Assembly: GCA_963822445.1 (NCBI GenBank)
Contig: CAWGHO010000003.1
Location: forward strand, 1,696,001 to 1,760,000
DNA: 64,000 bases
Direction: 5' to 3'
Source: an uncultured Acidobacteriota bacterium
GTDB lineage: Bacteria; Acidobacteriota; Thermoanaerobaculia; Gp7-AA8
The notes below the pieces were generated by a model, which saw nothing but the letters and a program-made list of their open reading frames with translations, did no database searches and had not been told where the DNA came from. This document shows, in pieces, positions 1,164-62,424 of this stretch (position 1 is the stretch's first letter; each line of letters opens with the position of its first letter). Made by a program: the position numbers and the translations under genes.

Positions 1164-1775
1164 ATGAAAACCACTGTCTTTCTATTGATTTGCGCCCTGT
1201 CCCTGCCCGCCTTCGGCGCGCCGATCGAGCTCGATCGCGCGGCCGCGGCGATGTCCGGGATGGAGGCCAGTTTCACCCATCGCTTCACCGCGAAAGGCTT
1301 CAAAACCAGCCAGGTCGAGAACGGCTCGGTCGTGTTCGGGGCGCTCCCCAAGATGCGCTGGAGCTACAACTCCCCCGAAAAGAAGATCTTCGTCTTCGAC
1401 GGCACGAGCTCCTGGTTCTATGTCCCCGCCGACAAGCAGGTCACCCTCGGCCGCGTCAGCGACGCCCGCAAGCGCGAGCTCCCCTTCCTCCTCCTCGGCG
1501 ACCCCGCGGCGCGCAACAAGTACTTCGTCGTGAAACAGCAAACCCGCAACGGTGCGGTCGTGACCACGCTCAATCCCCGCGACAGCAAAGCCGTCGTGCG
1601 CGCGGTCAGCGTGACCATCAACCCGTCGACGCACCTCATCTCCCGCATCGAATACACCGACCGCGAGGGCAACCGCACGTCCTTCGACTTCTCCGGTTAT
1701 CATCGCCGCGCCGCGTCGGCAGAGACGTTCCGATTCGATCCGCCGGCGGGAGTACAAGTGGTTCGCGCCGACTGA
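1164..1775 (+). CDS. lolA: Outer-membrane lipoprotein carrier LolA family
   Basis: Signal peptide; KMRWSYNSPEKKIFVFDG; ends F-x-F-x-PP-x-GV; GAGGA ribosome site. Confidence 0.85.
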   Translation: MKTTVFLLICALSLPAFGAPIELDRAAAAMSGMEASFTHRFTAKGFKTSQVENGSVVFGALPKMRWSYNSPEKKIFVFDGTSSWFYVPADKQVTLGRVSDARKRELPFLLLGDPAARNKYFVVKQQTRNGAVVTTLNPRDSKAVVRAVSVTINPSTHLISRIEYTDREGNRTSFDFSGYHRRAASAETFRFDPPAGVQVVRAD

Positions 1776-1778
1776 AAA

Positions 1779-1840
1779 CAGTAGGCGGTAGGCGGTAGGC
1801 AGTGGAAACGGTTTTCCTGCCCACTGCCCACTGCCCACTG
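1779..1840. repeat. Inverted heptamer tandem-repeat hairpin (CRGTAGG / CTGCCCA)
   Basis: Left arm 1779-1805 cagtagg cggtagg cggtagg cagtgg; right arm 1817-1840 (ctgccca)x3 ctg. Confidence 0.85.
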
Positions 1841-1869
1841 CGAGCGCGACGCAAGGAGCGCGTACTGCC

Positions 1870-3414: not shown

Positions 3415-3810
3415 TTAGCTCAACATCTCCATGATCTCCGACATCGCCGCGCGGGCACGCGCGTGAACGGTGTCGTTCGCGCCATCCGCTGACAGGCGGA
3501 TCACCTTGTTGTACTGCTCGATGGCCCGGTCGTACTCGCCGAGGCAGCGGTGGTAGATGTCGCCCTTGCAGAGCTTGGCCTCGAGGTTCAGCGGGTCGAG
3601 CTCGAGGATCTTGTTGAGGAAGATCATCGCCGTGTCGTACTTCTCCTCCTCCATGGCCATGCGGTAACGGAGGCGGTAGAGCGTGATCAGCTCGTTGTTC
3701 TTCGGATCGATCCACGCGCCGGGAAGGTAGGTCAGGAGCGTGGAGAGGAGGCGGCTCTTGGGAGCCACCGTGGCATTCGAGCGCTTCACCTGAATCATCT
3801 GCCGCATCAC
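3415..3810 (-). CDS. Small TPR protein
   Basis: TPR-like helices (NKILELDPLNLEAKL; YDRAIEQYNKVI); GGAGGG ribosome site and its own promoter. Confidence 0.75.
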   Translation of the reverse strand: MMRQMIQVKRSNATVAPKSRLLSTLLTYLPGAWIDPKNNELITLYRLRYRMAMEEEKYDTAMIFLNKILELDPLNLEAKLCKGDIYHRCLGEYDRAIEQYNKVIRLSADGANDTVHARARAAMSEIMEMLS

Positions 3811-3878: not shown

Positions 3879-4474
<596 letters not shown>

Positions 4475-4484
4475 CCGCTCGCGC

Positions 4485-4558
4485 GAAATGCAGAATGCAG
4501 AATGCAAAATGCAGAAGGGATCATCTTTCTGCATTCTGCATTTTGCATTCTGCATTTC
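4485..4558. repeat. Inverted heptamer tandem-repeat hairpin (TGCAGAA / TTCTGCA) between convergent genes
   Basis: Arms 4485-4516 and 4527-4558, 32 nt each, nearly perfectly complementary. Confidence 0.92.
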
Positions 4559-4568
4559 CGCGTTCGGC

Positions 4569-5549
4569 CTAAGCCGAACGCGGATCGAGCGCATCACGAA
4601 ACCGCTCGCCGATGATGTTGAACGCCGCGACCGTCGTGAAGATCGCCACGCCCGGGAAGAGCACCAGCCACCACGCATACTCGATGTGCTCGCGCGCGGC
4701 GGAGAGCATGCTTCCCCACGACGACGTCGGCAGCGGCACGCCGAGCCCGAGGAAAGAGAGTGCTGATTCGGTGAGGATGGCGACCGCCACGCCGAAGCTC
4801 GCTGACACGAGCACCGGTGCAATCGCGTTCGGCAGAAGGTGGTGGACGATGATCCGCGCGTCGCGCGCGCCGCTTGCCCGCGCGGCCTGCGCGTATTCGA
4901 TCTCGCGGATGCGCAGAAACTCACCGCGGACGTAGCGTGCCTCGTTTGTCCAGGATGTAAGGCCGAGGGCGATCATGATCGTGTACATCGACGGGCGGAA
5001 CAGCGCGACGATGCCGAGAACGAGGAAGAGGAACGGAAAGCAGAGCACGACCTCGATCAGGCGCGAGACGACCCAGTCCACGCCGCGGCCGTAGTAGCCG
5101 GCCAGTGCGCCGAGGAACGAGCCGACGACCACCGAGATCGCCGTGGCCAGAAATCCGACGGTCAGCGAAACCCGCGCGCCGTGAATGAGCCGCGCCAGGA
5201 CATCGCGCCCCAGATCATCCGTGCCCAGAAGATGTGCACCTTTCGGCGGGGCGAGGCGGCTGCCCAGTTCGATCGCGTTCGGGGAAAACGAGACCGGCGC
5301 GGGCAGCACGACCCTGGTTTTGCCGCCGGGCGCATCGATGTCCGGATCGTCACTCCAGTAGTCCGCGAACGCCGGGAAGCTCAGTCCCGTCTCATCTCTG
5401 GCGATCAGCGGCTTCCGATTCGCGAGCAACGGCGCGAGCAACGCGACGAGGCTCATCACGATCACGTAGACCAGCGCGACCGTGGCCAGCTTGCTGCGGC
5501 GGAAGCGCTTCCAGGTCTCATTCGTGGCCGATGGGTCGCGTCGCATCAC
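4569..5549 (-). CDS. Peptide ABC transporter permease (OppC/DppC-like)
   Basis: HLLGTDDLGRD, EAA loop (YAQAARASGA), LRDALDP-like end. Confidence 0.93.
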   Translation of the reverse strand: MMRRDPSATNETWKRFRRSKLATVALVYVIVMSLVALLAPLLANRKPLIARDETGLSFPAFADYWSDDPDIDAPGGKTRVVLPAPVSFSPNAIELGSRLAPPKGAHLLGTDDLGRDVLARLIHGARVSLTVGFLATAISVVVGSFLGALAGYYGRGVDWVVSRLIEVVLCFPFLFLVLGIVALFRPSMYTIMIALGLTSWTNEARYVRGEFLRIREIEYAQAARASGARDARIIVHHLLPNAIAPVLVSASFGVAVAILTESALSFLGLGVPLPTSSWGSMLSAAREHIEYAWWLVLFPGVAIFTTVAAFNIIGERFRDALDPRSA

Positions 5550-10371: not shown

Positions 10372-10385
10372 TGGTTCCTTTCGGT

Positions 10386-10454
10386 CGTGTAGTGTGGGCC
10401 TCCGGCCTACCTCTGGGCGGGGCGCGAAGGTAGGCCGGAGGCCCACACTACACG
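10386..10454. repeat. REP doublet (REPIN-like), GTAG class
   Basis: Perfect 27-bp inverted repeat cgtgtagtgtgggcctccggcctacct / aggtaggccggaggcccacactacacg; each half is itself palindromic. Confidence 0.85.
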
Positions 10455-12310
10455 TCAGATTGCGGGGCGGACGTCGATGTTGATCTTCAGCGCGCCGTCG
10501 ACGATGTATCCGAGGGGGCGGGCCTGATGACCGGTGGCATGGTACTTCACCGGAGCCTGCGCTCCGTTCGAGGTATCCGCGCTGACCACCGCGCGCATCG
10601 ACGGCGGCAGATTCGGCAGATACACGCCCGAGGTCACCGCACCTTCGCCATTCGAATAGAGGCCGACGGTGAGGTCGGTCGAAGGACGCAGACGCTGCAA
10701 CACGGCCAGCACCTGCTCGAGCGTTCGCGGATCGGGCGGAACGAGCGTGAAGTCGACGGCGTTCATCACCGAGCCGCTGCCGATGAGCAGATACGCCTCG
10801 CCCGCGGGCTGGTCATCGGGGATGCGCACGTCGAACGTTTCGACGAACGACTCGCCGCGATAAGGCTTGAGCACCGTCCGCACTTTGACCGTGTCGCCCG
10901 CTTTGATGCGGCCGTTGTCCGTGCGCACCAGCGCGGCTTCCATCAGTTTCGCGGTGCGGAGCTCGTCGTCGTGGCGCAGGTTCACCTTCACCGACTCGAT
11001 GTCCGCAGCGCGGAACTCATTCGACATCAGGTAACCGGAAACGACGGCGAGATACGCGGGGATGGACTGGCGGGCCTGCTGGCCTGCCCAGCCTTCGCGA
11101 AGGCGGATCGGCTCGAAGCCCTTGATCCGGATCTCGGAGTCGAGCATCACCGTGCGCTCGCCGGCCGCGCGCTGCGCGTTGGCGATCACCGTGTCGGTGG
11201 CCATGGCCAGGATCAACGGCGAGAGATGCGAATGCCGGACGATGTTGACGTTGTAGGTCTGCTCGCCGTTCATGGGTCAGCTCGACCGGAATGAGATCCG
11301 CGGTCTCGCCGAGAACGCCCATGATGCCGGCCGAGCGGTCCTGCCGCAGCGCGCCGACGACGTTGCCGGTGTTCGAGAACTTGAACGAGCGTGGCCATGC
11401 TGGGCAGCACGGTCACGACTTCCGACGTCGCCATCGGGAAGCTGATCTCGCCCATGTCCAGGAAGGGATGGCCGAAGGCGTAAACCTTGTCGCCGTCGAC
11501 GTAAGTCACCGTTCCGCTGGCCGCGACGTTGAAGTCGCCGTTCAGGAGCACCGCGCCGACCGGATCGCCGGGCGCGAAGGTCTTCTTGTTGTTCGACGCA
11601 TTCTTCGCGGACGAGGTCGCGCCCGCGGGCACGGCCACGAATCCGAGGTTGTCGAGATGCGGGGCGAAGCGGGAAATGGTCTCCGGCGCGAAGCTGGAGA
11701 GCGACATCGGCATGGCGATGCGCTTCGCTCCGCTCATCGCGTTCACGGGACGCGACGCGGAGAAGGCGCTCATCAGCTTGTCGAACGCCGCGTCGGTTTT
11801 CTTGTCGGCAAGCGCCTGCAGCAATTCCGCGCCGGTCATCCGCGGGGCGGCGTCCGCGAGCGTGGCGCCGGCCGGCCGCGTGCGGCTGGAGATCTTCAGC
11901 ATCTCGTCGATCGGCGTGATGCCGGCGACGGGCTCTTTCGAGAACTGCCAGGCGTACGCGAGTGCGCCGATGACTTTTCCGTCGACGATGACCGGCGAGC
12001 CGGACATGCCGGCGATGATGCCCGCGCGGCGAACGACCGGTGAGTCGACGCGCGCCAGGATCAGATTCTGCTCGGGGCCGATGTTCTCCAGCACCCCCAG
12101 GATCTCCACCTCGAACCGCTCGACCTCGGTGCCCTCGAAGACGGTCAGGCCGTAGCCCTTCATCCCCTTCTTCACTTCCGAGAGCGGCATCTTTTCAGCG
12201 GTCGCTGCGGGCTGCGCAACCGCGGCAGACGCAAGCGTGACGGAAAACGCCATAGCGAGGACGGTGACCAGAAGCATCAATTTTCGGGTGAGCACGGTCG
12301 AAGTAACCAC
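10455..12310 (-). pseudogene. SpoIVB-type S55 serine peptidase broken by two +1 frameshifts (possibly sequencing errors)
   Basis: IIAGMSGSPV, GHPFL and QDR-AG motifs; removing one C near 11391 and one near 11274 joins three frames (MASSFKFSN...ELTMNGEQ). Confidence 0.8.
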
Positions 12311-12346: not shown

Positions 12347-13561
12347 CTATTCCCAGCGCAGCGCCTCGATCGGGTCGAGCTTCGAAGCCTTGGCCGCGGG
12401 GTAGATTCCGAAGACGATGCCCAGGAGTGCGCAGAAGCTGAACGCGCCGAGGACCGCCCAGAGCGGCGTGTGCACGGCCGGGAACTCGACCCAGCGGCTG
12501 ATGATCAGGCGGGCGATGTTGGCCATCACGAATCCGCCGGCGATTCCCACCAGCCCGCCGAAGCCGGAAAGGACGATGGCCTCGATGAGGAACTGCACGA
12601 GGACGTCCATCCGCCGCGCGCCGATGGATTTGCGGATGCCGATCTCGCGGGTCCGCTCGGTCACGGAGACGAGCATGATGTTCATGATCCCGATACCGCC
12701 GACGAGCAGGGCGATGGCCACGACGCCGCCGAGAATCAGGGTGATCGAGCCGAGGACGCTGGAGAAGATCTTCATCAGCTCTTCCTGGGCCAGGATGCGG
12801 AAGTCGTCCGGTTCCCCTTTCGGGATCCGGTGCCGCGCCCGCAACACCTCCGTGACCTGTTCCTTGGCGAGCTCGAGGTCCGCGCCGTCTTCCATCTGAA
12901 AGGCGAGCACGAGCGTGCGCATGTTCTCGCTGCCGAAGATGACCACGGCCGTGGCGAAGGGGATGAGGATGACGTCGTCCTGGTTGCCGCCGAGGGTCCC
13001 GCCTTTTTTCTCGAGCACGCCGACGACGGTGAAGGTGTCGGTGTTGACCTGAATCAGCTTGCCGATGGGATTGCTGCCCAGCTCGAGCCGCTCGATGACC
13101 TCCACTCCGACGACGCAGACGCGCTTCTTCTGCTCTTCATCGACGGGAGTGAAGAAACGGCCGCGATCGACCCAGTGATTGAGGATGTCCGGATACGACC
13201 GCGCGACCGCGTAGAGCTGCACCGAATGCCGCGCGTCCGCATGCTTGAGCTGCACGCTGGAGATGAAGATCGGCGAGAAATCGCGAATGGCCGTCGTCTG
13301 CCGCCGCACCGCCAGCGCGTCGTCGATGGTGAGCTCCGGCGTCTTGAACGGATTGCGCCGATCGCCCTGCGGAAAGACCTCGATGAACCCCCCGCCGATG
13401 GAGTTGAGATCCCCGGAGATCTTCTTCTGAAACCCCTGAACGATCGACACCACGGCGATGACCGCGGCCACGCCGATCATGACACCCAGGACCGTCAATA
13501 CGCTCCGCATTTTGTTCGCGCGGATGGCGGATAAGGCGATTTTTAGGTTTTCTAGCAACAT
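12347..13561 (-). CDS. MacB/FtsX-type ABC permease
   Basis: NKMRSVLTVLGVMIG; GGIGIMNIMLVSVTERTREIGIRK; P-AA-LDPIEALR. Confidence 0.95.
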   Translation of the reverse strand: MLLENLKIALSAIRANKMRSVLTVLGVMIGVAAVIAVVSIVQGFQKKISGDLNSIGGGFIEVFPQGDRRNPFKTPELTIDDALAVRRQTTAIRDFSPIFISSVQLKHADARHSVQLYAVARSYPDILNHWVDRGRFFTPVDEEQKKRVCVVGVEVIERLELGSNPIGKLIQVNTDTFTVVGVLEKKGGTLGGNQDDVILIPFATAVVIFGSENMRTLVLAFQMEDGADLELAKEQVTEVLRARHRIPKGEPDDFRILAQEELMKIFSSVLGSITLILGGVVAIALLVGGIGIMNIMLVSVTERTREIGIRKSIGARRMDVLVQFLIEAIVLSGFGGLVGIAGGFVMANIARLIISRWVEFPAVHTPLWAVLGAFSFCALLGIVFGIYPAAKASKLDPIEALRWE

Positions 13562-13591
13562 AGGGACGAGGTTCGAGGGACGAGGTACGAG
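13562..13591. repeat. Heptamer arm (AGGKWCG x4) flanking the four-helix-bundle gene
   Basis: agggacg aggttcg agggacg aggtacg ag; abuts the permease ATG. Confidence 0.9.
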
Positions 13592-13594
13592 TGG

Positions 13595-13975
13595 TCAGCG
13601 TTTGGACGGTGGACGCTGCGTTGCGACTTTTGCGCGGAGGCCGCCGATTACCCGGCCCACTTCCTCGGAATTCGAGAGCATCGTTTTGTAGACCGCGTCG
13701 TCGATGTATTCGAGGCGATGCGCGAGGTGAACGTACGTCGCCAACTCCGCGCACGAGCCTTTCGCGATCGAGAGGAACCGATGGAACTCCGCGCGACTCC
13801 CGCGATCGAAGCCTTCGGCGATGTTGGCGGGCATCGAGATCGCGGCGCTGTGCACCTGGTTGCTCAGCGCGAAGTCGCGGCTGAGCGGTCGCTTTCTGGT
13901 CATCCGGTACGCGTCAACAGCGAGATCCATTGCCTTTTGCCACGCGATCAGTTCCTCGAATCGCTGGATCTTCAT
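13595..13975 (-). CDS. Four-helix-bundle protein (23S rRNA IVP family, Avd-like fold)
   Basis: F-EL-AWQKAM, Q-AAIS-PANIAEG and F-RFL-IAKGS-AE are hallmark motifs of the PF05635/TIGR02436-type family. Confidence 0.93.
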   Translation of the reverse strand: MKIQRFEELIAWQKAMDLAVDAYRMTRKRPLSRDFALSNQVHSAAISMPANIAEGFDRGSRAEFHRFLSIAKGSCAELATYVHLAHRLEYIDDAVYKTMLSNSEEVGRVIGGLRAKVATQRPPSKR

Positions 13976-13976
13976 A

Positions 13977-14006
13977 CTCGTCCCTCGTCCCTCGTACCTC
14001 TTACCT
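13977..14006. repeat. Heptamer arm (CTCGTMC x4), inverted partner of 13562-13591
   Basis: ctcgtcc ctcgtcc ctcgtac ctcttac ct; overlaps the ATPase stop codon. Confidence 0.9.
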
Positions 14007-14697
14007 AAACCACCTTGCCATCCCGTAACCGAATGACCCTCGCCGCTTCCTTAGCCACATCATCTTCATGCGTGACCATGATGATCGAGTTGCCGCGGGT
14101 GTGGAGCTCGTGGAAGAGGTCGAGGATTTCGCGGCCGGTCTGGGAGTCGAGGTTGCCGGTCGGTTCGTCGGCGAGGAGGAGGGAGGGCTTGTTCACGAGG
14201 GCGCGGGCGATGGCGACGCGCTGGCGTTGGCCGCCGGAGAGCTCGTTCGGCTGGTGGGACATGCGGTCTTTCAGGCCGACGGCGGTCAGCGCTTCTTCAG
14301 CGAGCTGGCGGCGTTCCACGCGCGGGATCTTCGCGTAGACCAGGGGCAGCTCGACGTTCTGCAGCGCCGTCGTGCGCGCGAGCAAGTTGAAGGTCTGGAA
14401 GACGAAGCCGATCTTCTTGTTGCGGATCGCCGCCAGCTCGTCGTCGTTCAGCGTCTCGACCGGCACTCCGTCGAGCAGGTACTGGCCGGACGACGGCGTG
14501 TCGAGGCAGCCGACCACGTTCATCAGCGTCGACTTGCCCGAGCCCGACGGGCCCATGATCGCGACGTACTCGCCGGGATCGATGGTCAGGTTGATTCCGC
14601 GCAGGGCGAAGATCTGCTGCGGACCGAGGTCGTAGACCCGGGTCAGCTCTTTCATCTCGATCAGGTGGTGGTGCTCGGGCTCAGGAAGCGCGCTCAT
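14005..14697 (-). CDS. ABC transporter ATP-binding protein (MacB/LolD-like)
   Basis: [28 protein letters not shown] and VTHE motifs. Confidence 0.96.
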
Positions 14698-15941
14698 TTG
14701 TCATCCTCGTCTTTGTCGTCTTTGTCTTTCTTCTTCGACGACTTCTTCGTTTCTTTCGTCACTACGATCTTCTCTTCGTCATCCAGCTCGCGGAGCGTGC
14801 GGAACGGCCCGGTGATGACCGGATCGCCGGGCTTCACGCCCGACAGCACCACCACGTGGGTGGCGTCGCTGATCCCGGTCATCACTTCGACCTGCCTGAC
14901 CTTCTCTTTGCCGGCCAGCAGGACGTACTTCTTTTTCGGCTTGTCGTCATCGTCATCGTCGCCCGCTTTCGCACCCGGCACGCGCTCCACGACGGCCTGG
15001 ATCGGGACGACCGTCGCGTTCGGCGCGGTGCTGGTCACGATCGAGACCTGCGAGGTCATGCCCGGGCGCAGACGGTCATCGGCGTTGTCGATGGCCACCT
15101 TCACCTTGAAGTAGCGGATGCCCGAGCCGGCGCCCTGACGGACCGCGGCGGAGCTGCCGATCTCCACGACCCGGCCGCGGTAGTCGCGGTCCGGAATCGC
15201 GTCGACCTTGATCTTCGCCTGCTGATTGATTCGGACGCCGACGACTTCGGTTTCGCCGACCTCGGCCTCGACCAGGATCTGTGACAGGTCGGCGATCACG
15301 GCGATGACCGAGCCAGGGTTGTTCATCGTCCCGGTCACGACCACTTCCCCTTCGTGCGCGTTGAGCTGCACGACTTTGCCGTCGATCGGAGAAACGATGG
15401 TCGTCCGCGAGAGGTCTTCCGCCGCCTGACGCAACCCCGCCTCGGCCTGCGTGACGCCGAGGCGTGCCGCGTCCAGCGCGGCGGTGGCGTTGTCGTGGGC
15501 CATGCGGGCCTGGTCGAACAGCTCCTGGGCCTGAATCCCCTGCTTGCTCAGATTCTGTGCGCGCTGATAGGCGGCGTTCGCGGTTGCCAGCGCGGCCTGC
15601 GCGCGCCGGACTTCCACGCGGCGGCTGGACAACTCCGCACTGAGGCGGTCGCGCTGGCCGACGTAAATGAACTTCTCCAGATCGACCAGCCGCTGGCCGC
15701 GCTTCACCGTGTCGCCTTCGAGGAAATACAGCTTCTCGATCTTGCCGACGATGTGGGCGCTGATGTTGACCTTCACCTTCGGATCGATCTGCCCCGGCGC
15801 GTTGACGACGGCCTCGATGGTTTTCGTGGCGGCGGGCTCGACGTAGACCTTTTCGCCTTTCGGCCCGCCGCCTTTGATGCTCGCCAGGACGATGGCCGCG
15901 ATGACGACCACGGCCCCGGCGATGATCAACCCACGTTTCAC
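14694..15941 (-). CDS. Periplasmic adaptor (MacA/HlyD family)
   Basis: N-terminal TM helix, lipoyl halves (EGDTVKRGQ; SPIDGKV), coiled coil, LRPGMT. Confidence 0.92.
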
Positions 15942-18505: not shown

Positions 18506-19513
18506 ATGCGTCATTTCCTCGGCCTTTTCGTCCTCCTCCTCCTCACCTTCTCAGCCTCCGCCGAAGTGGTAGCCGGCCGTCGGTTCATCCTCGTCCACGA
18601 CCAGTGGGCTCCCGCCGGCGGCGGAGCGGTCATGCCGCTCGGGGTTCCCGCCGAATCCGCAGCATTCGACGGCGAGCGGTTCCTCGTGGTTTGGCGGGAA
18701 GGAACCACGATGCGGATCGCGCTTTTCGATGAAGGCGCGAGCACGGCGATCGCCGAGTCCTCGGTCGCCGTGCCTCCGTTCGCGCCTCTGTTCGTCCGAT
18801 GGGAGGGATCGCGGTATGTCGTGGCCGCCGGTGGCGATCCGGGCGTGGTCGCCGTCGTCTCACCGCAGGGAGTGCTCGAGTCGGTCAGACCCGTGAGCGG
18901 TGCGCGCAGCCTGGTCGACGTGGCCGCGAGCGCGTCCGGCGTCGCGCTGCTCCTCCACTACTCGACCGAAACGCACTCCGGCGTGGTCGACGTGATGCTT
19001 CTCGACAGCGAACACCTCGCTGCCCGGCGCACGACCGTCGGAGCGGTGCAAGCAAGCACGGGGTTCGGCGCGACCTGGATCGGCACGCCTAGGATCGTCC
19101 CGTTTGGATCGGTGTTTTACGTCGTCTGGCGTGAGGCCCGCGCGGGACGCTACGACCGATTGCTCGGCACACAAATGAACCTCGACGGATCAGCGGTCGC
19201 CGGGACACTTCTCGAGACCGCGTATGCCTACCCGTCGCCGTACGCCGTCTTCGTTCATCCGTACGGGACGCGGCTGGCGGTGAATGCGGTGCGCGAGTGG
19301 GGCAGCGGCATCACGACCACGCTCGTCGAACAGGATGGCACCGCGCGGCAACTCACCGATTACTTCGGCACCGCCAATCTGCCGAAACTGGCCACGGTAC
19401 GCCTGCCCGACGGATCGATCTTCGCGATCTACGTCGTCGATGGCGTGGCGAAGATCAAGCCGGTGCTGAACCCGCCGGCGGCACCGCCGCGGCGGCGTTC
19501 CGCGCGACATTGA
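18506..19513 (+). CDS. Secreted beta-rich protein with C-terminal PPRRRSARH tail
   Basis: Signal peptide; repeated [10 protein letters not shown] / WEGSRYVVA / FGSVFYVVW blades. Confidence 0.7.
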
Positions 19514-20687
19514 GCCCTTCCGGATCGCTCTGAGCCGGGAGCGGGTCGCCCGCGAAATGGCACGCCGCGAAGTGTCCCGGCTTGTGCTCGATCAGCGGCG
19601 GAACCTCGGTCTTGCAGATCGGGAACTGCGCGATCGGACAGCGCGTGTGGAAGACGCAGCCGCTCGGCGGATTGAGCGGCGTGGGGATGTCGCCCTTCAG
19701 CAGGATGCGGGTCTTCTTCAGCGTCGGATCGGGAATCGGCACCGCGGAAAGCAGGGCCTTTGTGTACGGATGGAGCGGATCCTCGTACAGCGCGCGGCGC
19801 GGCGAGAGCTCCATGATCTTGCCGAGGTACATGACCGCGACGCGCGTGGAGATGTGCTCGACGACGGAGAGGTCGTGGGCGATGAAGAGGTAGGTCAGTC
19901 CGAGCTCGTCCTGCAGATCCATCAGCAGATTGACGACCTGGGCCTGAACGGAAACGTCGAGCGCGGAGACCGGCTCGTCGAGGACGAGGAACTTCGGATT
20001 CGTCGCCAGCGCGCGCGCAACACCGATGCGCTGCCGCTGCCCGCCGGAGAACTCGTGCGGATAGCGTTTCCGGTAGTCGGGGCTCAGGCCAACGCGTTCG
20101 AGAAGCTGCGCGACGCGATCGCCGCGCTCCGAGCCGCCCATGTCGCCGTGGATGATCAGCGGCTCGGCGACGATCGACCCGACGGTCATCCGCGGGTTGA
20201 GCGACGCGTATGGATCCTGAAACACGATCTGCATGTGACGGCGCATGCGGCGCATGTCCCCGCTGTCGAGGCCGAGGACGTCCGTGCCTTCGAACTCGAC
20301 CGAGCCGGAGGTCGGTTCGATGAGCCGGAGGATGCAGCGGCCGACCGTGGTCTTGCCCGATCCCGATTCGCCGACCAGGCCCAAGGTTTCCCCTTTTGCG
20401 AGACCGAAGCTCAGACCGTCGACGGCTTTGACCTGCGCGACCACGCGCGCGAGCACGCCGCGTTTCACCGGAAAGTACTTCTGCAGATCCTTGACGACGA
20501 GCAGCGGCTCGCCGAGCCCGATCGGAATCTTCGGCGTCGTCTGCGGCGCGGATTTCTCTCTCGGATCATGCGTCGGCTTCGCATCGCGATCGACCTGACG
20601 CGCGGTCTGATCGGCGGGCGTTTGCAGCCCGCCCGTGATCGCGGGGGCCACGCCGTCGTCGCCGGGGATGAAGGGCTTGTCGCTCAT
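19455..20687 (-). CDS. Peptide ABC ATP-binding protein (OppF-like)
   Basis: [24 protein letters not shown] and GC-FHTRCP motifs; start set at MSDKPF. Confidence 0.93.
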
Positions 20688-20712: not shown

Positions 20713-20806
20713 GGATTGAGGATTGAGAATTGAGGATTGAGGATGCGCGTGCTCGCGACTGTCGTTTGGTGTTCATCCTCAATCCTCAATCCTCAATTCT
20801 CAATCC
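20713..20806. repeat. Inverted heptamer tandem-repeat hairpin (GGATTGA / TCAATCC)
   Basis: Arms 20713-20745 and 20774-20806, 33 nt each; the right arm contains the OppD-like stop codon. Confidence 0.92.
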
Positions 20807-21917
20807 CTTCAAGCCTCTCCGGATCGGCCTCATCCCCATGCAGGTAGCACCGCGCAGCCTGTCCCGGATCGACCGGCATCAGCGCCGGTTCGTTGCCGAG
20901 GCAGATGTCCATGACGTCCGGACAGCGCGGGTTGAACTTGCAACCCTGCGGCAGATTGCTGATCGGCGGGACCATGCCTTTGATCGTTGCCAGGCGGTTC
21001 GGCGGCGGGTTGTACGAGTCAGGTGGCGCAGACACTCCTGTCTGCGCAGGCGCTACGACATCCTTGTCGACGATGCTCGGCAGCGATTTCAAAAGTCCGC
21101 GCGTGTACGGGTGCGAGGGATTCGAGAAGAGCTTCGTCACCGGCGCTTCTTCGACCACCCGGCCGGTGTACATGACGATGATCCGCTCGCAGAACTCGGC
21201 GACGACGCCGAGGTCGTGGGTGATGAGCAGGATCGCCAGTCCGAGTCGCTTCTGCAGCGACTCGAGCAGCTCCATGATCTGCGCCTGGATCGTGACGTCG
21301 AGCGCGGTCGTCGGCTCGTCGGCGATCAACAGCTCGGGATCACACGAAAGCGCGATGGAGATCATCACCCGCTGGCGCATGCCGCCGGAGAGTTGATGCG
21401 GATAGTCATGCAGACGCTTGTGCGGATCGGGAATCGACACCAGCTCGAGCATGTCCCCGGCCTGCTTCCACGCTTCTTTCTTCCCGACTTTGCGATGGAT
21501 GCGGATCGCTTCCGCGACCTGCTCACCGATCTTGAAGACCGGGTTGAGCGACGTCATCGGCTCCTGGAAGACCATGGCGATGTCGTTGCCGCGCACGGCC
21601 CGCATCTCCCGTTCCGGGATCTTGACGAGGTCGCGGCCTTTGAAGCGGATCTCGCCGCCGCTGATCTTTCCCGGCGACGCGACCAGCCGCATGATCGACA
21701 TCGCGGTCACGCTCTTGCCGCAGCCCGACTCGCCGACCAGCGCCACGGCCTCGCCCCTGCGCACGTTGAAAGAGATGTTGTCGACCGCGTGCACTTTGCC
21801 GCCGTCGCTCCCGTAAAACGTCGTGCGCAGGTTCTTGACCTCGAGCAGCGCCTCGGCCGGGTTCACGTCCACATCCGCGACAGCGGCACCGCTCATCCCA
21901 ACAGGCTGTTCCGTCAC
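20793..21917 (-). CDS. Peptide ABC ATP-binding protein (OppD-like)
   Basis: [24 protein letters not shown] and GCKFNPRCP motifs; GTG start inferred from the TG-C-TACCAT box. Confidence 0.93.
21023..21056. repeat. REP-like palindrome inside the OppD-like coding sequence
   Basis: GTGG then gcgcagaca-ctcc-tgtctgcgc (9-bp perfect stem), closing with gcgctac. Confidence 0.65.
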
Positions 21918-36581: not shown

Positions 36582-36584
36582 CTC

Positions 36585-36617
36585 CTTCTGCCTTCTGCCT
36601 TCTGCTTTCTGCTTTCG
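36585..36617. repeat. Single heptamer arm (YTTCTGC x4) between mutS2 and dnaG
   Basis: cttctgc cttctgc cttctgc tttctgc tttcg; no partner arm nearby. Confidence 0.85.
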
Positions 36618-41459: not shown

Positions 41460-44264
41460 CTACGCCGCCTGCGCGGCCGCCGGAATCTGCACCCGATCCA
41501 GATCCGCGAGCAGCGCACCTGCATCGGCGTAGCGCGTTTTCGGGTCTTTGGTCAGGCACTTCATCACGATGCCGTTGACCTCGCGGCCGATGTCGGGGCG
41601 CGCGTCGATCGGTGGCTTCGCCGCTTCGGTGATGTGCGCGGTCAGGACGCCGGTGAGCGATGACGACTCGAACGGGCGGCGGCCGACGAGCATCTCGTAG
41701 ATCAGCACGCCCATCGAATAAACGTCGCTGCGGGGATCGAGCTGTTTGCCCTGCACCTGCTCGGGGCTCATGTAGTGCGGCGTTCCGATGATCAGCCCTG
41801 CCTGGGTCATGGCCTCGGGCGTCTCGGCCATGCGCGCGATCCCGAAATCCATCAGCTTCACTTCGCCCTTCGCGTCGATGAGCACGTTGCCCGGCTTGAT
41901 GTCGCGGTGGATGATCCCCTGCTCGTGCGCGGCGTGCAGTCCGCGGCAGATCTGACGGGAGATGCCCACCGCGGCGCGCGCAGGCATCTGCCGGTTCGGC
42001 GCTTCCTCGAGCAGCTCGCTGAGCGTGTAGCCGCGCACGAACTCCATGCTGATGAAGTACACGCCCTCGGCCTGTCCGTAGTCGTACGTGCGCAGGACGT
42101 TGCGGTGGGTGATCTTGCGCGCCAGACGGATCTCGCGCTTGAAACGCTCCAGATCTTCCGGCGACCTGGTCATCACGTCGCCGGGCAGGGTCTTGATGGC
42201 CACGGTCTCGTCGAGCTGCGAGTCGACGGCTTTGTAGACGACGCCCATGCCGCCGCGGCCGAGGATCTGCTCGATCTTGTAGCGCTCGGCGAAGAGGTGT
42301 CCGAGCGGCAGATCGGCATACGGAGCTTGCGGAGCGGTGACACCGGCCGCGGTCGCGTCCATCTTCAGCGTCGCGCCCTCGGACATCGTTCCGCCCATCG
42401 AGCGCATCATCCCTGTCGTCACGCTGACCAGCGGCAGAGACGCAACCGGCAGCGGCTGCGCGAGCCACTTGAGGCGGACTTCCTCGCGCGTCGACGAGCT
42501 CAAAACCTCGCTGCCGGCCGACTGCGCGGTTTCGTAGGAAACGTAGGCGTACCCGTTCGGCGCGTGCCACGCGAAGAGCAGCGCAAGGAGCGGCGCATCG
42601 CCGATGATGGCCAGTCCCGACTCGTTCTCCAGCGACACGGATCCGGTCACGAACTCGCCGGTCGCGATCCCGATGCCAATCGACATCGGCGTGCTCGCAC
42701 CGAACTGCAGCGCGAGCTCCTCGTTGATCGCCCGCGCCGCGCGGATGGCGTGAATGATTCCGCGGTCGCCGCGGAAAACCGAAACGAGCCGATGTCCGTC
42801 CAGCTCGCGCACCGAGCCGTCCTGGCGAATGACTTCCGCCTGCTGGATGCGCATGGCCCGCTCGACGGTGGCGATCACAGTCTCGGCGTCGCTCTCACCG
42901 ACAGAGGAGAGGCCACGGAGGTCGGTCACCAGGATCGTCCCCTCATCCCGCTTCGCCGCTTCGGGAGGTTTCGCCGCCGGAACATCCTCGGCCTTCTCGG
43001 CCATGTCGGCGTAGAGCTGCTCGAGCTCGGCCTTGTCGCGGAGCGAATTCATCATCTTTCCGAACGAGCGGCCGAGGATTCCGACTTCGTCGTTGCGGTC
43101 GCTGGGAGGATCGACGGAGTAGTCGCCCGCGGTCACGGCCTGGGCGATCCCCGCGAGCTGCTCGATCGGCCGGGTCACGCGCTTGGCGATCAGCCACGAC
43201 AGCAGAAACGCCAGCAGCAACGCAACGCCGCCGCCGATGAGCATGGCGTTCTCGATCTCGCGGAATGGCGCGAGCTCGCGGTCGAGCGAGCGGAGGAAGA
43301 TCGCCGAACCGACGACGTCCCGTCCGGATACGAGCGGCTCGGTGGTGAAGATGTAGCGGCTCTGATCGACGGTCGTCTCGGACGTCTTCTCCTGCGGCAG
43401 GCTCTGAGGCGAAACGCTGGGCGCCTCGGCAGACCGGACGGTCATCGACTCCGCCCCCTTGGTCCCGAAGACCACGCCGGCATTCGTCGATTCGGCGATG
43501 CGGTTGGCGAAGGTCTCGTCGATGGCGAACGCGTTCACGAGATAGCCGATGCGCACGCCGCGCGGGCCGGCACCGATCGGAGCGACCGCGGCGTGGAAGA
43601 GCTTGTTGCCGAGGCGAAGAACGCCGGATGTGCGTGCGACCGAGGCGTCGTCGACGATCTGCTTGACCAGAGGAGTCTGGTTGTAAAGATCCTCCTTCGA
43701 CGCCGAGGCGACCATCGGGTCGTCCGTTCGGGCCACGAGGACGCCCTGGTCGTCGAGGAGCATCATCACGTCGACACCGAGACGGGTTCGCTGCTCGCCG
43801 AGGGTGTCGTTGATGCTTACGAGGTCGATGGCACGGGGGGCCGGTTCGGTTGGGACAGCCGCAGCCGGTTCGGGAGTCGCGGCCGGCGCCGCCGGATCAG
43901 CAGGCGCGGGCTCCGTGGCGGCCGCGGGCTCGCCCTCGATCGCGGCCTGAATGTAGGCCACGAAATTCGGATCGCTGCCCATGATCCCGGTGACGCTCTC
44001 CAGCCCCTTCAAGCGATCCGCCTCGAACTGCTTGAAGAGCTTGGCCGCGCTGGTGATCGACTTGTTGACCGAGGTCTGGGCGACCTGGTTCGCGCGCTGG
44101 ATGGTGATGGCGACGGCGACGGCGACGACGATCACGATGAGAACGGCGGTCAGCCCGAACAGCTTGAGGACCAGCGGGAACCGCGGCCGCTCCACCGCGT
44201 ACTCCTTCTTCTTCGGCAGCTCGCGGTCGGCGACGGTGACGGGATCCAGTGTTTGGTCAGTCAC
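41460..44264 (-). CDS. Membrane Ser/Thr kinase: TM, periplasmic domain, TM, HAMP, degenerate class III cyclase, kinase
   Basis: GRGGMG, VAIK, HRDIKPGN, DFG and GTPHYMSPE; HAMP motif RNDEVG-L; AAGGAG site before the GTG. Confidence 0.88.
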   Translation of the reverse strand: MTDQTLDPVTVADRELPKKKEYAVERPRFPLVLKLFGLTAVLIVIVVAVAVAITIQRANQVAQTSVNKSITSAAKLFKQFEADRLKGLESVTGIMGSDPNFVAYIQAAIEGEPAAATEPAPADPAAPAATPEPAAAVPTEPAPRAIDLVSINDTLGEQRTRLGVDVMMLLDDQGVLVARTDDPMVASASKEDLYNQTPLVKQIVDDASVARTSGVLRLGNKLFHAAVAPIGAGPRGVRIGYLVNAFAIDETFANRIAESTNAGVVFGTKGAESMTVRSAEAPSVSPQSLPQEKTSETTVDQSRYIFTTEPLVSGRDVVGSAIFLRSLDRELAPFREIENAMLIGGGVALLLAFLLSWLIAKRVTRPIEQLAGIAQAVTAGDYSVDPPSDRNDEVGILGRSFGKMMNSLRDKAELEQLYADMAEKAEDVPAAKPPEAAKRDEGTILVTDLRGLSSVGESDAETVIATVERAMRIQQAEVIRQDGSVRELDGHRLVSVFRGDRGIIHAIRAARAINEELALQFGASTPMSIGIGIATGEFVTGSVSLENESGLAIIGDAPLLALLFAWHAPNGYAYVSYETAQSAGSEVLSSSTREEVRLKWLAQPLPVASLPLVSVTTGMMRSMGGTMSEGATLKMDATAAGVTAPQAPYADLPLGHLFAERYKIEQILGRGGMGVVYKAVDSQLDETVAIKTLPGDVMTRSPEDLERFKREIRLARKITHRNVLRTYDYGQAEGVYFISMEFVRGYTLSELLEEAPNRQMPARAAVGISRQICRGLHAAHEQGIIHRDIKPGNVLIDAKGEVKLMDFGIARMAETPEAMTQAGLIIGTPHYMSPEQVQGKQLDPRSDVYSMGVLIYEMLVGRRPFESSSLTGVLTAHITEAAKPPIDARPDIGREVNGIVMKCLTKDPKTRYADAGALLADLDRVQIPAAAQAA

Positions 44265-44289: not shown

Positions 44290-44384
44290 CGGTTGCGGGG
44301 TTTCGGGGTTGCGGGGTTTCGCGGTTGCTGGGAGCCCAGAACCCGGCCACCCCGAAACCTCGAAACTCCGCGACCCCGAAACGC
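44290..44384. repeat. Inverted octamer tandem-repeat hairpin (GGGTTKCG / CGAAACCC)
   Basis: Arms 44290-44328 and 44346-44384, 39 nt each. Confidence 0.85.
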
Positions 44385-44389
44385 ACCAC

Positions 44390-45055
44390 TCAGTAATCCC
44401 GGGCCGGTTTGTAGGTCTGCCCGAACTTGTTCTTGTGCTGCGACTGGCGGAAGTTGCGGCTGTCGATAGTGACCAGGGGGGCGTTGGGCAGGCCGTTGGG
44501 GCCGACCTCCAGGTCGCTCGTCACCGTCCCCCCCTGCTCGTTCCAGGCGGTCAGGCGGTATTTGCCCGGCGGGACGTCGAACGAGTACCTGCCGTTCGCG
44601 TCGGCGAAGCCGTAGTAAGGGGTCGACATCACGTGTACTACGGCGGACATGTTCGGATGGACGTTGCAGTAGATGCTGACCACGCCGGGGGTCTCGAACT
44701 TGTGAGGTTTGCCCGGTCCCTTGCGATAGAGACCGAGGTCGAAGGTGTTGCCGGGGGTGAGGGAAAAGAGGTTGTGGGCGATCGGGTCTTCGTTCGGGAA
44801 GTTGATCGTCGCCCCGGCCGGGACGGCCACGACGTGCGGCAGAAAGGTCTTGCTGCGCGTGGTCATGGTGAAGGTCGGCGCCGTGCGGCGGGAGGGTTTG
44901 CCGGCGACCGGATCGAGCCAGATCAGGGTCTCGTTCTTGACCGGATTCTGGCCGCGCTTGGTGAGAAACATGACTTGTCCGCTCACAACTGCAGCGCTGA
45001 GCTCGCCGGCGAAAAGAAGGACGCTGAGGCCGGCAGCGACGAGGAACCGTTTCAT
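44390..45055 (-). CDS. Secreted cupredoxin / carboxypeptidase-regulatory-like protein
   Basis: FPNED-IAHNLFS, YCNVHPNM and VPPGKYRL-AW motifs; signal peptide. Confidence 0.8.
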   Translation of the reverse strand: MKRFLVAAGLSVLLFAGELSAAVVSGQVMFLTKRGQNPVKNETLIWLDPVAGKPSRRTAPTFTMTTRSKTFLPHVVAVPAGATINFPNEDPIAHNLFSLTPGNTFDLGLYRKGPGKPHKFETPGVVSIYCNVHPNMSAVVHVMSTPYYGFADANGRYSFDVPPGKYRLTAWNEQGGTVTSDLEVGPNGLPNAPLVTIDSRNFRQSQHKNKFGQTYKPARDY

Positions 45056-45516
45056 AGGATTTTGCTCCGGGAGCCGGAAAGTGTAGCACAGGGATTTGTG
45101 CTTCGGGATGTGCCTCGGCATGGGGGTTGAAGTAGAAATGTCATGCGAATTTTTCATTGCGATTTTCGTGAAAAAACGTACTCTATTCGACATGCTCACA
45201 TGCGCACGGGGGAGGGCGAGCTGCAATAAAGCAGATCGGCCGCTGTTTCCCTAGCCATACGTTTTCAGTGCGGCAGACGGCCGCATGATCTTTTGAAAAG
45301 TCGACCAGTTCCCGCTCCTCCCCACCACCGCGGGGTGTGCGAGCGGTCGATCCGGTCCGCAACATCGGCAAGGTGGGTCATGGCACGTGACATGACGCCG
45401 TTGCGGGGCCGCCGGAAATTCATGGGGAGGAGGTACACGAATTCGCTATGGATTGTTCTAATAAACCTGAGGGGGCTACTTCGTAGCACTGCTACTCGGT
45501 AGCAACCCAACCCCGG

Positions 45517-62351: not shown

Positions 62352-62424
62352 CGGTGTGGTGCAGGCCTCTGGCCTGCCCCTCGTTCCCCCGCCCAAAGGC
62401 AGGCCGGAGGCCTGCACCACACCG
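62352..62424. repeat. REP doublet, same family as 10386-10454
   Basis: cggtgtggtgcaggcctctggcctgcc ... ggcaggccggaggcctgcaccacaccg. Confidence 0.85.

Follow-up and report, generated by a model that had tools for sequence, protein, structure and literature searches.

We analysed a 64,000-nucleotide (nt) stretch of an uncultured Acidobacteriota genome, referred to as the window. On its minus strand lies a MacB-type efflux operon with a pair of inverted 7-mer tandem arrays between the ATPase and permease genes. Such array pairs, and their single counterparts, are referred to as elements. The coding sequence flanking this element has an unusual third-position composition, which is poor in C where the coding strand enters the element and poor in G where it leaves. 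This 'halo' is the subject of the present analysis, and the features at the locus are as follows.

12347-15941, minus strand: MacB-type efflux operon, comprising an HlyD-like adaptor, an ABC ATPase and a MacB/FtsX permease
14005-14697, minus strand: ABC ATPase gene, MacB-type (Pfam ABC_tran, E 2e-35)
14008-14070, minus strand: upstream halo, the last 21 ATPase codons, C-poor and G-rich on the coding strand
13976-14007, minus strand: 5' arm (on the coding strand), G-rich tandem 7-mers overlapping the ATPase stop (Tandem Repeats Finder, TRF, 13977-14006, period 7)
13595-13975, minus strand: open reading frame (ORF) of 126 amino acids nested between the arms, 23S rRNA intervening-sequence protein family, four-helix bundle (PF05635, E 7e-34), weakly bAvd-like
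13561-13592, minus strand: 3' arm (on the coding strand), C-rich tandem array (TRF 13562-13591; inverted repeat I17)
13502-13561, minus strand: downstream halo, the first 20 permease codons, G-poor
12347-13561, minus strand: MacB/FtsX-type permease gene (Pfam MacB_PCD, FtsX)

The two 32-nt arms (13976-14007 and 13561-13592) are 88% complementary (I17). In the last 21 ATPase codons, the third positions comprise 2 C, 9 G, 7 T and 3 A, whereas C occupies 15 of the preceding 20; the C-terminus of this ATPase is conserved in 11 orthologues. Beyond the element, the first 15 permease codons after the start have 5 A, 8 C, 2 G and no T at the third position, and further in G occupies 10 of 20. The GC skew of the plus strand is -0.58 at 14010-14069, then +0.43 at 14070-14129. 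An earlier sequence-only reading of the window had noticed this composition and counted it by hand. All of its counts of C at third positions (C3) were reproduced: 2/21 against 15/20 in the ATPase, 8/26 against 19/25 in LolA, 3/21 in the OppD-like gene, 1/12 in the OppC-like gene and 1/10 in mutS2. The A-ending codons at the permease start and the gta, caa, caa of dnaG were likewise confirmed by recount.

The source genome (G000) consists of three contigs with 6.0 Mb and 64.5% G+C, and its completeness is 94.7%. We called genes with our own caller, which uses codon log-odds, obtaining 4815 genes at 87% coding. Arrays were taken from TRF with period 7 or 8 and at least 3 copies, giving 250 inverted pairs as well as 161 single arrays, the majority of the latter next to a degenerate partner arm. 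A 3' end within -25 to +10 nt of an element was counted as adjacent (n=231) and one with no element within 300 nt as a control (n=4469), although the control ends could contain undetected elements. A 5' start was adjacent when it lay at most 25 nt from an element (n=177; 4479 control starts).

Arrays of at least 3 copies are mostly intergenic (287/359 with period 7 and 307/389 with period 8), and about 200 elements of G000 start within -10 to +10 nt of a stop codon. The 250 pairs use 41 canonical units, with many unit families side by side. Units with G runs include the ACGGGGTT type, and many units have none, such as AATGCAG and AGTCGTT. Whichever strand the pair lies on, the 5' arm is G-rich in 242 of the 250, with a mean arm skew of +0.50 and -0.50. 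An insert of 364-385 nt between the arms, as at the efflux operon, occurs in 5 of the 250 pairs. The 6-mers of array units cover 1101 of the 4096 possible words, and every gene end contains some of them.

The observation is confirmed as real and genome-wide. At four-fold sites in the last 15 codons of the 231 adjacent 3' ends, C is.21-.24 and G.54-.65, compared with C.57 and G.35 at codons 41-60, and the 3' halo is gone by codons 25-30. In the 4469 control ends C, at.46 in the interior, drops to.31-.38, and G, at.41 there, becomes.43-.47. Third positions of all codons behave alike: over the last 15 codons the adjacent ends have C3 0.23-0.28 and G at third positions (G3) 0.51-0.55, the interior values being C3 0.53-0.55 and G3 0.33-0.35, and the control ends go from C3 0.47 to 0.32-0.39 and from G3 0.37 to 0.42. 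In the first 10 codons of the 177 adjacent starts, four-fold G amounts to.16-.19 and C to.61-.63, compared with interior values of.44 and.47, respectively, whereas the 4479 control starts decrease in G only to.32 and show no rise in C. Per-gene Mann-Whitney comparison of adjacent with control termini gives p=4e-35 for C3 and p=5e-24 for G3 at 3' ends, and p=3e-15 for G3 and p=2e-16 for C3 at 5' starts. Approximately 400 gene termini in G000 are affected at silent sites. When only termini conserved in a relative (G003) are taken, C is 0.21 and G 0.66 at 29 adjacent ends, and 380 controls have 0.36 and 0.49, respectively.

The same feature appears without any gene model. On the strand entering an element, the stretch 11-50 nt away has a GC skew of +0.2 to +0.3, which has decayed to the baseline by 80-90 nt. 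This entering-strand skew is positive on both sides of the element, i.e. the strand switches at the element, and the stretch leaving it has a composition of about C.38 and G.23. On either strand, therefore, some 60-80 nt running 5' to 3' into the element are C-poor and G-rich, and some 60-80 nt leaving it are G-poor and C-rich. The 5' halo fades when the element is more than 30 nt away, and it is equal at co-directional and divergent starts. The halo is also found at all four intragenic elements (4/4, with about 30 sites per bin) and in non-coding flanks; it is symmetric and does not depend on replication direction. It is the element, rather than the gene end, that anchors the halo. The sequence-only reading was right to centre it on the elements with a strand switch there, and the polarity is that of the 5'C/3'G single-switch clusters described in the available part of Sakofsky et al. 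(2019, PMC6786661).

At four-fold sites of the 3' halo, the ratios T/C, G/C and A/C each increase about fivefold, and 8/8 four-fold codon families shift. At NNY codons of the 3' halo C/(C+T) decreases from.86 to.54-.58, and at NNR codons G/(G+A) increases from.70 to.80. The 5' side mirrors the 3' side, with C/(C+T) at NNY codons rising from.73 to.87. From the gene end inward, G+C at third positions (GC3) goes from.74 to.84 in controls and from.73 to.87 beside elements, and the drop at the end is no larger than in controls. Ordinary terminal codon relaxation covers the A/T part only and not the exchange between C and G. What sets the halo apart is that G takes the place of C upstream of the element, and C that of G downstream. 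The loss of C on the entering strand, which the sequence-only reading had described, is thus borne out, but the replacement is mainly G rather than T or A.

We perturbed a substitution matrix from the gene bodies of G000 and G003 in a Markov model, which is rough, as the data are near saturation, but the contrast is large. Raising all exits from C fivefold gives A.07, C.19, G.65 and T.09, against A.08, C.21, G.64 and T.08 in the observed halo. Raising C>T alone twentyfold gives C.23 but T.28 and G.42. Since only the all-exit model fits, the halo appears as a penalty on the state C and not as a C>T flux; in model terms it acts as an approximately fivefold penalty on the base C, whichever base replaces it. 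Cytosine damage on resected single-stranded DNA (ssDNA), the cause proposed by the sequence-only reading, is not supported by these figures, given that all three ratios rise about fivefold and that a C>T-only change predicts T.28 where.08 is seen.

Positions 1 and 2 of the codon hardly move at adjacent ends, and the halo is therefore no read-through of decayed repeats. Per 20 terminal codons, position 3 has a G-minus-C excess over controls of +4.0, and positions 1 and 2 combined have one of +1.0. If sites had been picked, positions 1 and 2 should have shifted at least equally (with approximate variances), so we infer that the halo was largely made in place under protein constraint. The domain is built in place by many synonymous substitutions in conserved host genes. 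This agrees with the sequence-only reading, which had the halo arise by substitutions inside host genes: the shift is at synonymous positions, and the NNY changes between orthologues given below run in that direction.

For comparison we used G003, sampled over 2.8 Mb (C2 1-2,800,000) with 2106 genes and 1324 reciprocal best hits to G000. We notice that the 2.8 Mb hold 253 array pairs with unit families unlike those of G000, and that a nested palindrome family recurs after stops where G000 has arrays. A weaker version of the halo is present in G003. Orthologous ends were sorted by the presence of arrays, and four-fold C in the last 15 codons is as follows.

Array in both genomes, 17 pairs: G000.24, G003.28
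Array only in G000, 29 pairs: G000.16, G003.26
Array only in G003, 121 pairs: G000.33, G003.29
Array in neither, 591 pairs: G000.36, G003.36

By these classes, an element strengthens the halo where it is present, and the site keeps a part of it. Many of the array-less sites in G003 hold other palindromic repeats, and such gene ends therefore look like long-term landing places. Where only one genome has the element, pairwise counts of substitutions (made without outgroup polarisation) at NNY codons give C>T 88 versus T>C 44, compared with 202 versus 196 in gene bodies. At 5' starts G>C is 48 versus 30, with NNR G>A 27 versus 11. At four-fold sites C>G is 145 versus G>C 128, and C>T is 24 versus T>C 20. 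Amino-acid identity to G003 over the last 20 codons is.71-.73 at adjacent ends and.64-.73 at controls, so that divergence is not raised. As amino-acid identity is unchanged and all three exits from C are equal, we see no sign of a large rise in mutation rate.

Closer relatives allow the efflux operon itself to be compared. The ATPase protein is about 88-91% identical in the closest of them. Tallies over the whole stretch against relatives 4-13% diverged (short contigs from read runs; 2399 differences) give C>G and G>C as the most frequent changes. At the ATPase-permease junction, CAT GAT GAT is found in the 3 genomes that have an array element there (G000, G010 and G008, each with different repeat units), and CAC GAC GAC in 7 of the 9 genomes without one, G009 and G003 each having one GAT for GAC; one of these 9 element-free rows comes from G002, which is unpublished. 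Behind its ATPase stop, G008 carries a hairpin of ATAGGAC-type 7-mers. In G010, an ORF related to the PF05635 ORF lies between arrays of another unit, and the remaining genomes have a short hairpin or nothing at this junction. Because G008, G010 and G000 hold different arrays at the same place, one junction has been filled repeatedly.

The sequence-only reading had suspected that the effect may be general to hairpins. We find flank skews of 0.00-0.08 beside 269 intergenic non-array hairpins with stems of 12 bp or more, compared with 0.2-0.3 beside arrays, and the arms of these hairpins follow no skew rule (130 versus 108). The flank skew grows with stem length across hairpin classes (.03,.04 and.12, with arrays at.14-.21), the.12 belonging to the 61 non-array hairpins with a stem of at least 18 bp. 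The halo is therefore not general to hairpins, as the non-array ones show nearly none, though it grows with stem length. Among the arrays, the flank skew of period-8 families (e.g. ACGGGGTT, AAAGGCTC) is roughly double that of period-7 families (e.g. AATGCAG, AGTCGTT), 0.25 versus 0.12, and period-8 arrays are less perfect than period-7 arrays. Within G000 we find no dependence of the halo, or a weak inverse one, on array perfection, copy number, loop length or arm skew.

Array-free 3' ends of every class (operon-internal, convergent, with or without a strong downstream fold) have a C drop of the same sign and under half the size. The sequence-only reading had suggested a plot of C3 and G3 around arrays against array-free termini and had taken an equal drop at the latter as an argument against itself. 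In that plot the shift is far stronger at elements, and only the sign of the drop is shared by array-free 3' ends. We also notice a general drift at all gene 3' ends, where four-fold sites turn from C exceeding G to G exceeding C over the last 15-25 codons, independent of any repeat or hairpin and strongest at convergent ends (C.32, G.50-.52). Full-text searches found no literature account of this repeat-independent drift.

Several simple sources of the skew were considered and set aside. A Chi-like oriented word does not emerge: only array-unit words stand out, many of them from the degenerate arms of 'single' arrays, and GGCGG occurs 345 times against 219 expected. A tRNA- or codon-specific cause is ruled out, as all eight four-fold families shift, and a dependence on the direction of replication was not seen. 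The flanks do not extend the stem, left and right flanks being complementary in register at 12.55 of 30 positions against 12.23 for mismatched partners. They are not decayed array copies either, since k-mers of the own unit are no commoner in the flank than units of other families and the protein termini are conserved. Nor is the 3' flank unstructured, as 60-nt windows fold at -17.59 kcal/mol, compared with -17.58 kcal/mol further inside the gene.

On the basis of these comparisons, we tentatively favour, with rather less than even confidence, the idea that the halo is a GC-skew domain which evolved in place and continues the polarity of the arms, most likely through selection on the composition of a single strand, RNA or DNA. 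Selection on strand composition seems more likely than a raised mutation rate. The penalty on C would then be selection acting over about 80 nt, with C and G discriminated. One conceivable agent would be a reading of nascent-RNA skew over about 80 nt at gene boundaries, by Rho loading or R-loop formation, in which a transcript would resist Rho or tend to form hybrids ahead of the element, with the opposite behaviour beyond it. The proposal is weakest in this choice of agent, which we regard with low confidence because the C-rich stretch is usually translated and Nostoc is without Rho. A rho gene is present in G000 (722 bits; C2:695450-696682). Its frame has 677 amino acids for a 415-position model, which suggests a long N-terminal extension.

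A number of observations weigh against selection on strand composition. The C-rich stretch downstream lies in translated gene starts, where Rho should not act, and cyanobacteria are without Rho according to the available part of PMC12642595, though their arrays keep the same orientation rule. Positions in non-coding flanks show only a 1.3-1.6-fold penalty on C, whereas selection per site would predict about fivefold unless these positions are constrained or young; they include ribosome-binding sites, promoters and degenerate arms. This weak non-coding penalty counts against both per-site models, mutation as well as selection. Skew at positions 1 and 2 is not compensated by skew at position 3 (r=+0.05). 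The 3' halo leaves local RNA folding energy unchanged (-17.6 versus -17.6 kcal/mol), and predicted hairpin formation is the same with the native as with a distal flank (.83 versus.825). The doubled halo at period-8 arrays has no account in the proposal, and array-less orthologues retain 40-55% of the excess C depletion, although other palindromic repeats occupy the spot in many of them. Four-fold identity is nearer saturation in 3' halos (excess.10 versus.15 in controls), not in 5' halos; this fits a raised mutation rate, but gain and loss of elements would give the same. Moreover, G003 is far from G000 (median 70% protein identity among reciprocal best hits), both being near synonymous saturation, and the genes, starts and elements all come from our own heuristics.

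Strand-asymmetric mutagenesis that accompanies the making and maintenance of arrays is a rather less probable explanation, though one to be taken seriously. Slippage, template switching or low-fidelity gap filling would re-synthesise the last 60-80 nt, with a broad spectrum that removes C on the entering strand. Such a process would account for an effect that is specific to arrays, differs between array families and is symmetric, as well as for the near-saturated synonymous identity of 3' halos to G003 and the directional change in pairs with and without an element. It must, however, raise C>G, C>T and C>A by one common factor; amino-acid divergence is not raised, and non-coding flanks shift far less than four-fold sites. 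The flanks are not complementary in register (12.55 versus 12.23 of 30), flank words do not come from the element's own repeat unit, and array perfection and copy number are without effect. It is unlikely that the halo is older than the element, with elements inserting or surviving where the flanks were already skewed. Every gene 3' end does have a weaker skew of the same sign, and the array-less G003 orthologues of G000 element ends have C.26, against.36 at ends arrayless in both genomes. The small four-fold difference between pairs with and without the element (C>G 145 versus G>C 128) and the indifference to array perfection point the same way. Yet standing variation, with estimated variances, should shift positions 1 and 2 as much as position 3 or more, and they gain +1.0 against +4.0 per 20 codons. 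Array-free 5' starts offer no C-rich class to pick, and many of the 'empty' orthologous sites hold other palindromic repeats. Within pairs, four-fold C also differs,.156 versus.264 and.290 versus.332 (z about 2.9 and 2.0 by our own calculation), and NNY changes run 2:1. A folding explanation, in which C is removed before the G-rich arm and G after the C-rich arm so that the flank does not mispair with the arm or stays unstructured, strikes us as quite doubtful. The polarity fits, the flank is slightly depleted of reverse complements of the own unit words relative to those from other families (z of -1.2 to -2.2 over 45 nt), and the nascent flank plus 5' arm folds 3.3 kcal/mol weaker with the native than with a distal flank (p=2e-4). 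Nevertheless, the hairpin is predicted equally with the native and the distal flank (.830 versus.825), flank-arm pairing is.36 versus.40 (p=.19), local folding energy is unchanged by the 3' halo, and the flanks do not extend the stem. Halo strength also fails to rise with arm skew (r=-0.20) or with the G content of the arm.

The break-damage mechanism of the sequence-only reading, whose interpretation is partly supported overall, seems to us similarly improbable. Repeated cutting, for example by SbcCD, with bidirectional 5'>3' resection would leave the top strand single to the left of the cut and the bottom strand single to its right, and deamination of cytosines would leave a 5'C/3'G halo. 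The polarity matches single-switch clusters from bidirectional resection (available part of PMC6786661), and the halo is symmetric, centred on the element, independent of gene orientation and stronger with longer stems (.03,.04,.12; arrays.14-.21). NNY codons also agree, with C/(C+T) going from.86 to.54-.58 and C>T 88 versus T>C 44 in pairs with and without the element. On the other hand, a rise in C>T alone that brings C to.23 gives T.28 and G.42 where.08 and.64 are observed, four-fold C>T is only 24 versus T>C 20 in the same pairs, and the increases of G/(G+A) at NNR codons and of C/(C+T) at 5' NNY codons are predicted by no C-specific damage. Unraised amino-acid divergence, the 0.00-0.08 flank skew of the 269 ordinary intergenic hairpins and a length of 60-80 nt against resection tracts of kilobases (available part of PMC6786661) speak against it as well. 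A rough estimate of our own from deamination rates would require each of the approximately 400 sites to break in about 1% of generations. As for the nuclease, the models TIGR00619 (sbcD) and TIGR00618 (sbcC) have no match at E<=0.001 in G000, a genome 94.7% complete in which other nucleases were not searched. Among 31 genomes (G000 and 30 relatives), sbcD reaches the cut-off in none (0/31) and matches weakly in 4, these genomes being incomplete and absence therefore not proof; the sbcD search matched in 13 of 14 control genomes and passed the cut-off in 8. Hairpin cleavage by SbcCD is not supported, and loss of SbcCD could be the reason why hundreds of long palindromes are tolerated. A related idea, more speculative still and hardly probable, is that the arrays are scars of break healing. 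A G-strand-adding activity would extend both 3' ends with 7/8-mers before joining, and the halo would record strand-specific processing and re-synthesis of the last 60-80 nt at sites that repeatedly break and heal. Such joining would explain the G-rich 5' arm in 242/250 palindromes and, if true, would mean that a bacterial chromosome has a telomere-like pathway of end healing. Finally, the notion that the halo is only the usual codon-usage relaxation of gene termini, with no link to elements, is scarcely credible and is refuted by the comparisons above. GC3 does fall at both ends of all genes, equally beside elements, and every array-free 3' class tested has a C3 drop of the same sign. The effect, however, is 2-3 times larger at elements (p=4e-35), the C rise at adjacent 5' starts is without counterpart in controls, and the halo tracks the distance to the element and occurs inside genes and in non-coding flanks.

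Six further array elements are found in the window besides the one between the ATPase and permease genes.

1698-1841, plus strand: end of the LolA gene (last 26 codons) with the array pair 1781-1841 (TRF 1781-1800 and 1817-1841; Pfam LolA)
3879-3968: array pair between the divergent starts of genes 3415-3810 (minus strand) and 3989-4474 (plus strand) (TRF, I9)
4487-4556: array pair between the convergent ends of the cytidylyltransferase-like gene 3989-4474 (plus strand) and the OppC-like gene 4569-5549 (minus strand) (I10)
20713-20806, minus strand: array pair between two oligopeptide ABC ATPase genes, at the end of 20793-21917 and the start of 19455-20687 (I7)
36584-36616, plus strand: single C-rich 7-mer array between mutS2, which ends at 36581, and dnaG, which starts at 36621 (TRF)
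44291-44382, minus strand: 8-mer array pair between the end of 44390-45121 and the start of 41460-44264 (I8)

The LolA end has C3 8/26 against 19/25 before it. At 4487-4556 both convergent ends have C3 7/21, and the OppC-like gene has 1/12 in its last 12 codons. The divergent starts at 3879-3968 individually show no loss of G (G3 10/15 and 7/15). For the element at 20713-20806, the upstream OppD-like end has C3 3/21 and the downstream start has C3 at 12 and G3 at 3 of 15 codons. The mutS2 end has C3 6/21, with 1/10 in the last ten codons, and the dnaG start has C3 at 9 and G3 at 2 of 15, its gta, caa and caa falling within these first 15 codons. The halo at 44291-44382 is weak at the gene end (C3 10/21), and the start has C3 at 8 and G3 at 3 of 15. 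For reference, C3 ranges from 5 to 16 of 21 over 15 array-free gene ends of the window, with a mean of about 9.

Other repeats in the window are of a different kind. A palindrome with 32-nt arms (10381-10459) lies behind a gene ending near 10455, and a related 36-nt copy, 86% complementary to one arm, is located at 62387-62422, 52 kb away. These palindromes (I6 and I11) look like a family resembling repetitive extragenic palindromic (REP) sequences and distinct from the arrays. At the junction between the adaptor and ATPase genes of the efflux operon there is a short tandem repeat (14697-14729, period 15, plus period 9 at 14707-14726). The HlyD-like adaptor itself ends in a Lys/Asp-rich tail with many A-ending codons.

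Overall, the halo is a strong and real feature of a known repeat class and apparently undescribed, as full-text searches found no account of such a halo. The strong and reproducible footprint at approximately 400 termini shows that the cell, or the element, tells the two strands apart over about 60-80 nt on each side. Array palindromes of the heptamer type are abundant in several bacterial phyla, and the halo offers a quantitative handle on their role. The rival causes, selection on nascent RNA and strand-specific mutagenesis, now become separable. Meanwhile, in such genomes the synonymous sites near gene termini cannot serve as neutral markers, and local shifts in C3 and G3 can mislead analyses of codon usage and gene transfer.

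Rho utilisation (rut) regions are stretches of about 80 nt of C-rich, G-poor, unstructured nascent RNA upstream of the termination zone. The stretch leaving an element resembles them in length and in its specificity for C versus G, in composition only. It differs in that the C-rich stretch often lies in a translated gene start, and the stretch upstream of the element is the opposite of a rut site. A prediction model for rut regions exists, as the available part of PMC6144790 describes. REP sequences and bacterial interspersed mosaic elements (BIMEs), the palindromes of gene tails, share with the present elements an abundance of hairpin repeats right behind stops and a fast turnover between relatives. 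Unlike the array elements, the non-array palindromes of G000 have nearly no halo and no arm skew.

The yeast 5'C-to-3'G clusters, as far as the available part of Sakofsky et al. (2019, PMC6786661) describes them, likewise affect C on the left and G on the right of a centre on the top strand. They consist of C>T/G changes made in one event by an ssDNA-specific mutagen over kilobases, whereas the halo of G000 is equilibrium-like, 60-80 nt long, confined to synonymous sites and depleted of C equally towards G, T and A, with protein divergence not raised. Human genes have GC-skew domains at their 5' and 3' ends that are tied to R-loops and termination (Ginno et al., 2013, PMC3787257, in its available part). 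These domains are also a local G/C strand asymmetry at gene boundaries over tens to hundreds of bases, and it is the transcription machinery, rather than the genetic code, that reads them. In contrast to the human CpG-island promoters and terminators of that work, the skew in G000 flips at a repeat and lies in bacterial coding sequence.

The closest counterparts are the G-rich heptamers of Xanthomonas (GGGAATC) and Nostoc (STRR type), which in the available part of Rehm et al. (2015, PMC4692102) occur on the sense strand after stops and on the antisense strand before starts, with 70-75 convergent inverted pairs per Xanthomonas genome. The available part of that study treats the placement of arrays rather than the composition of neighbouring coding sequence, and its supplementary tables could list flank data. 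Like the repeats described there, the arrays of G000 are tandem 7-8-nt units, mostly intergenic and tens of bases from the ends of ORFs, with the same orientation of the G strand, and their inverted pairs can form hairpins. Unlike them, G000 has many coexisting unit families and a synonymous skew halo of 60-80 nt in its host genes, and its arrays are mostly paired.

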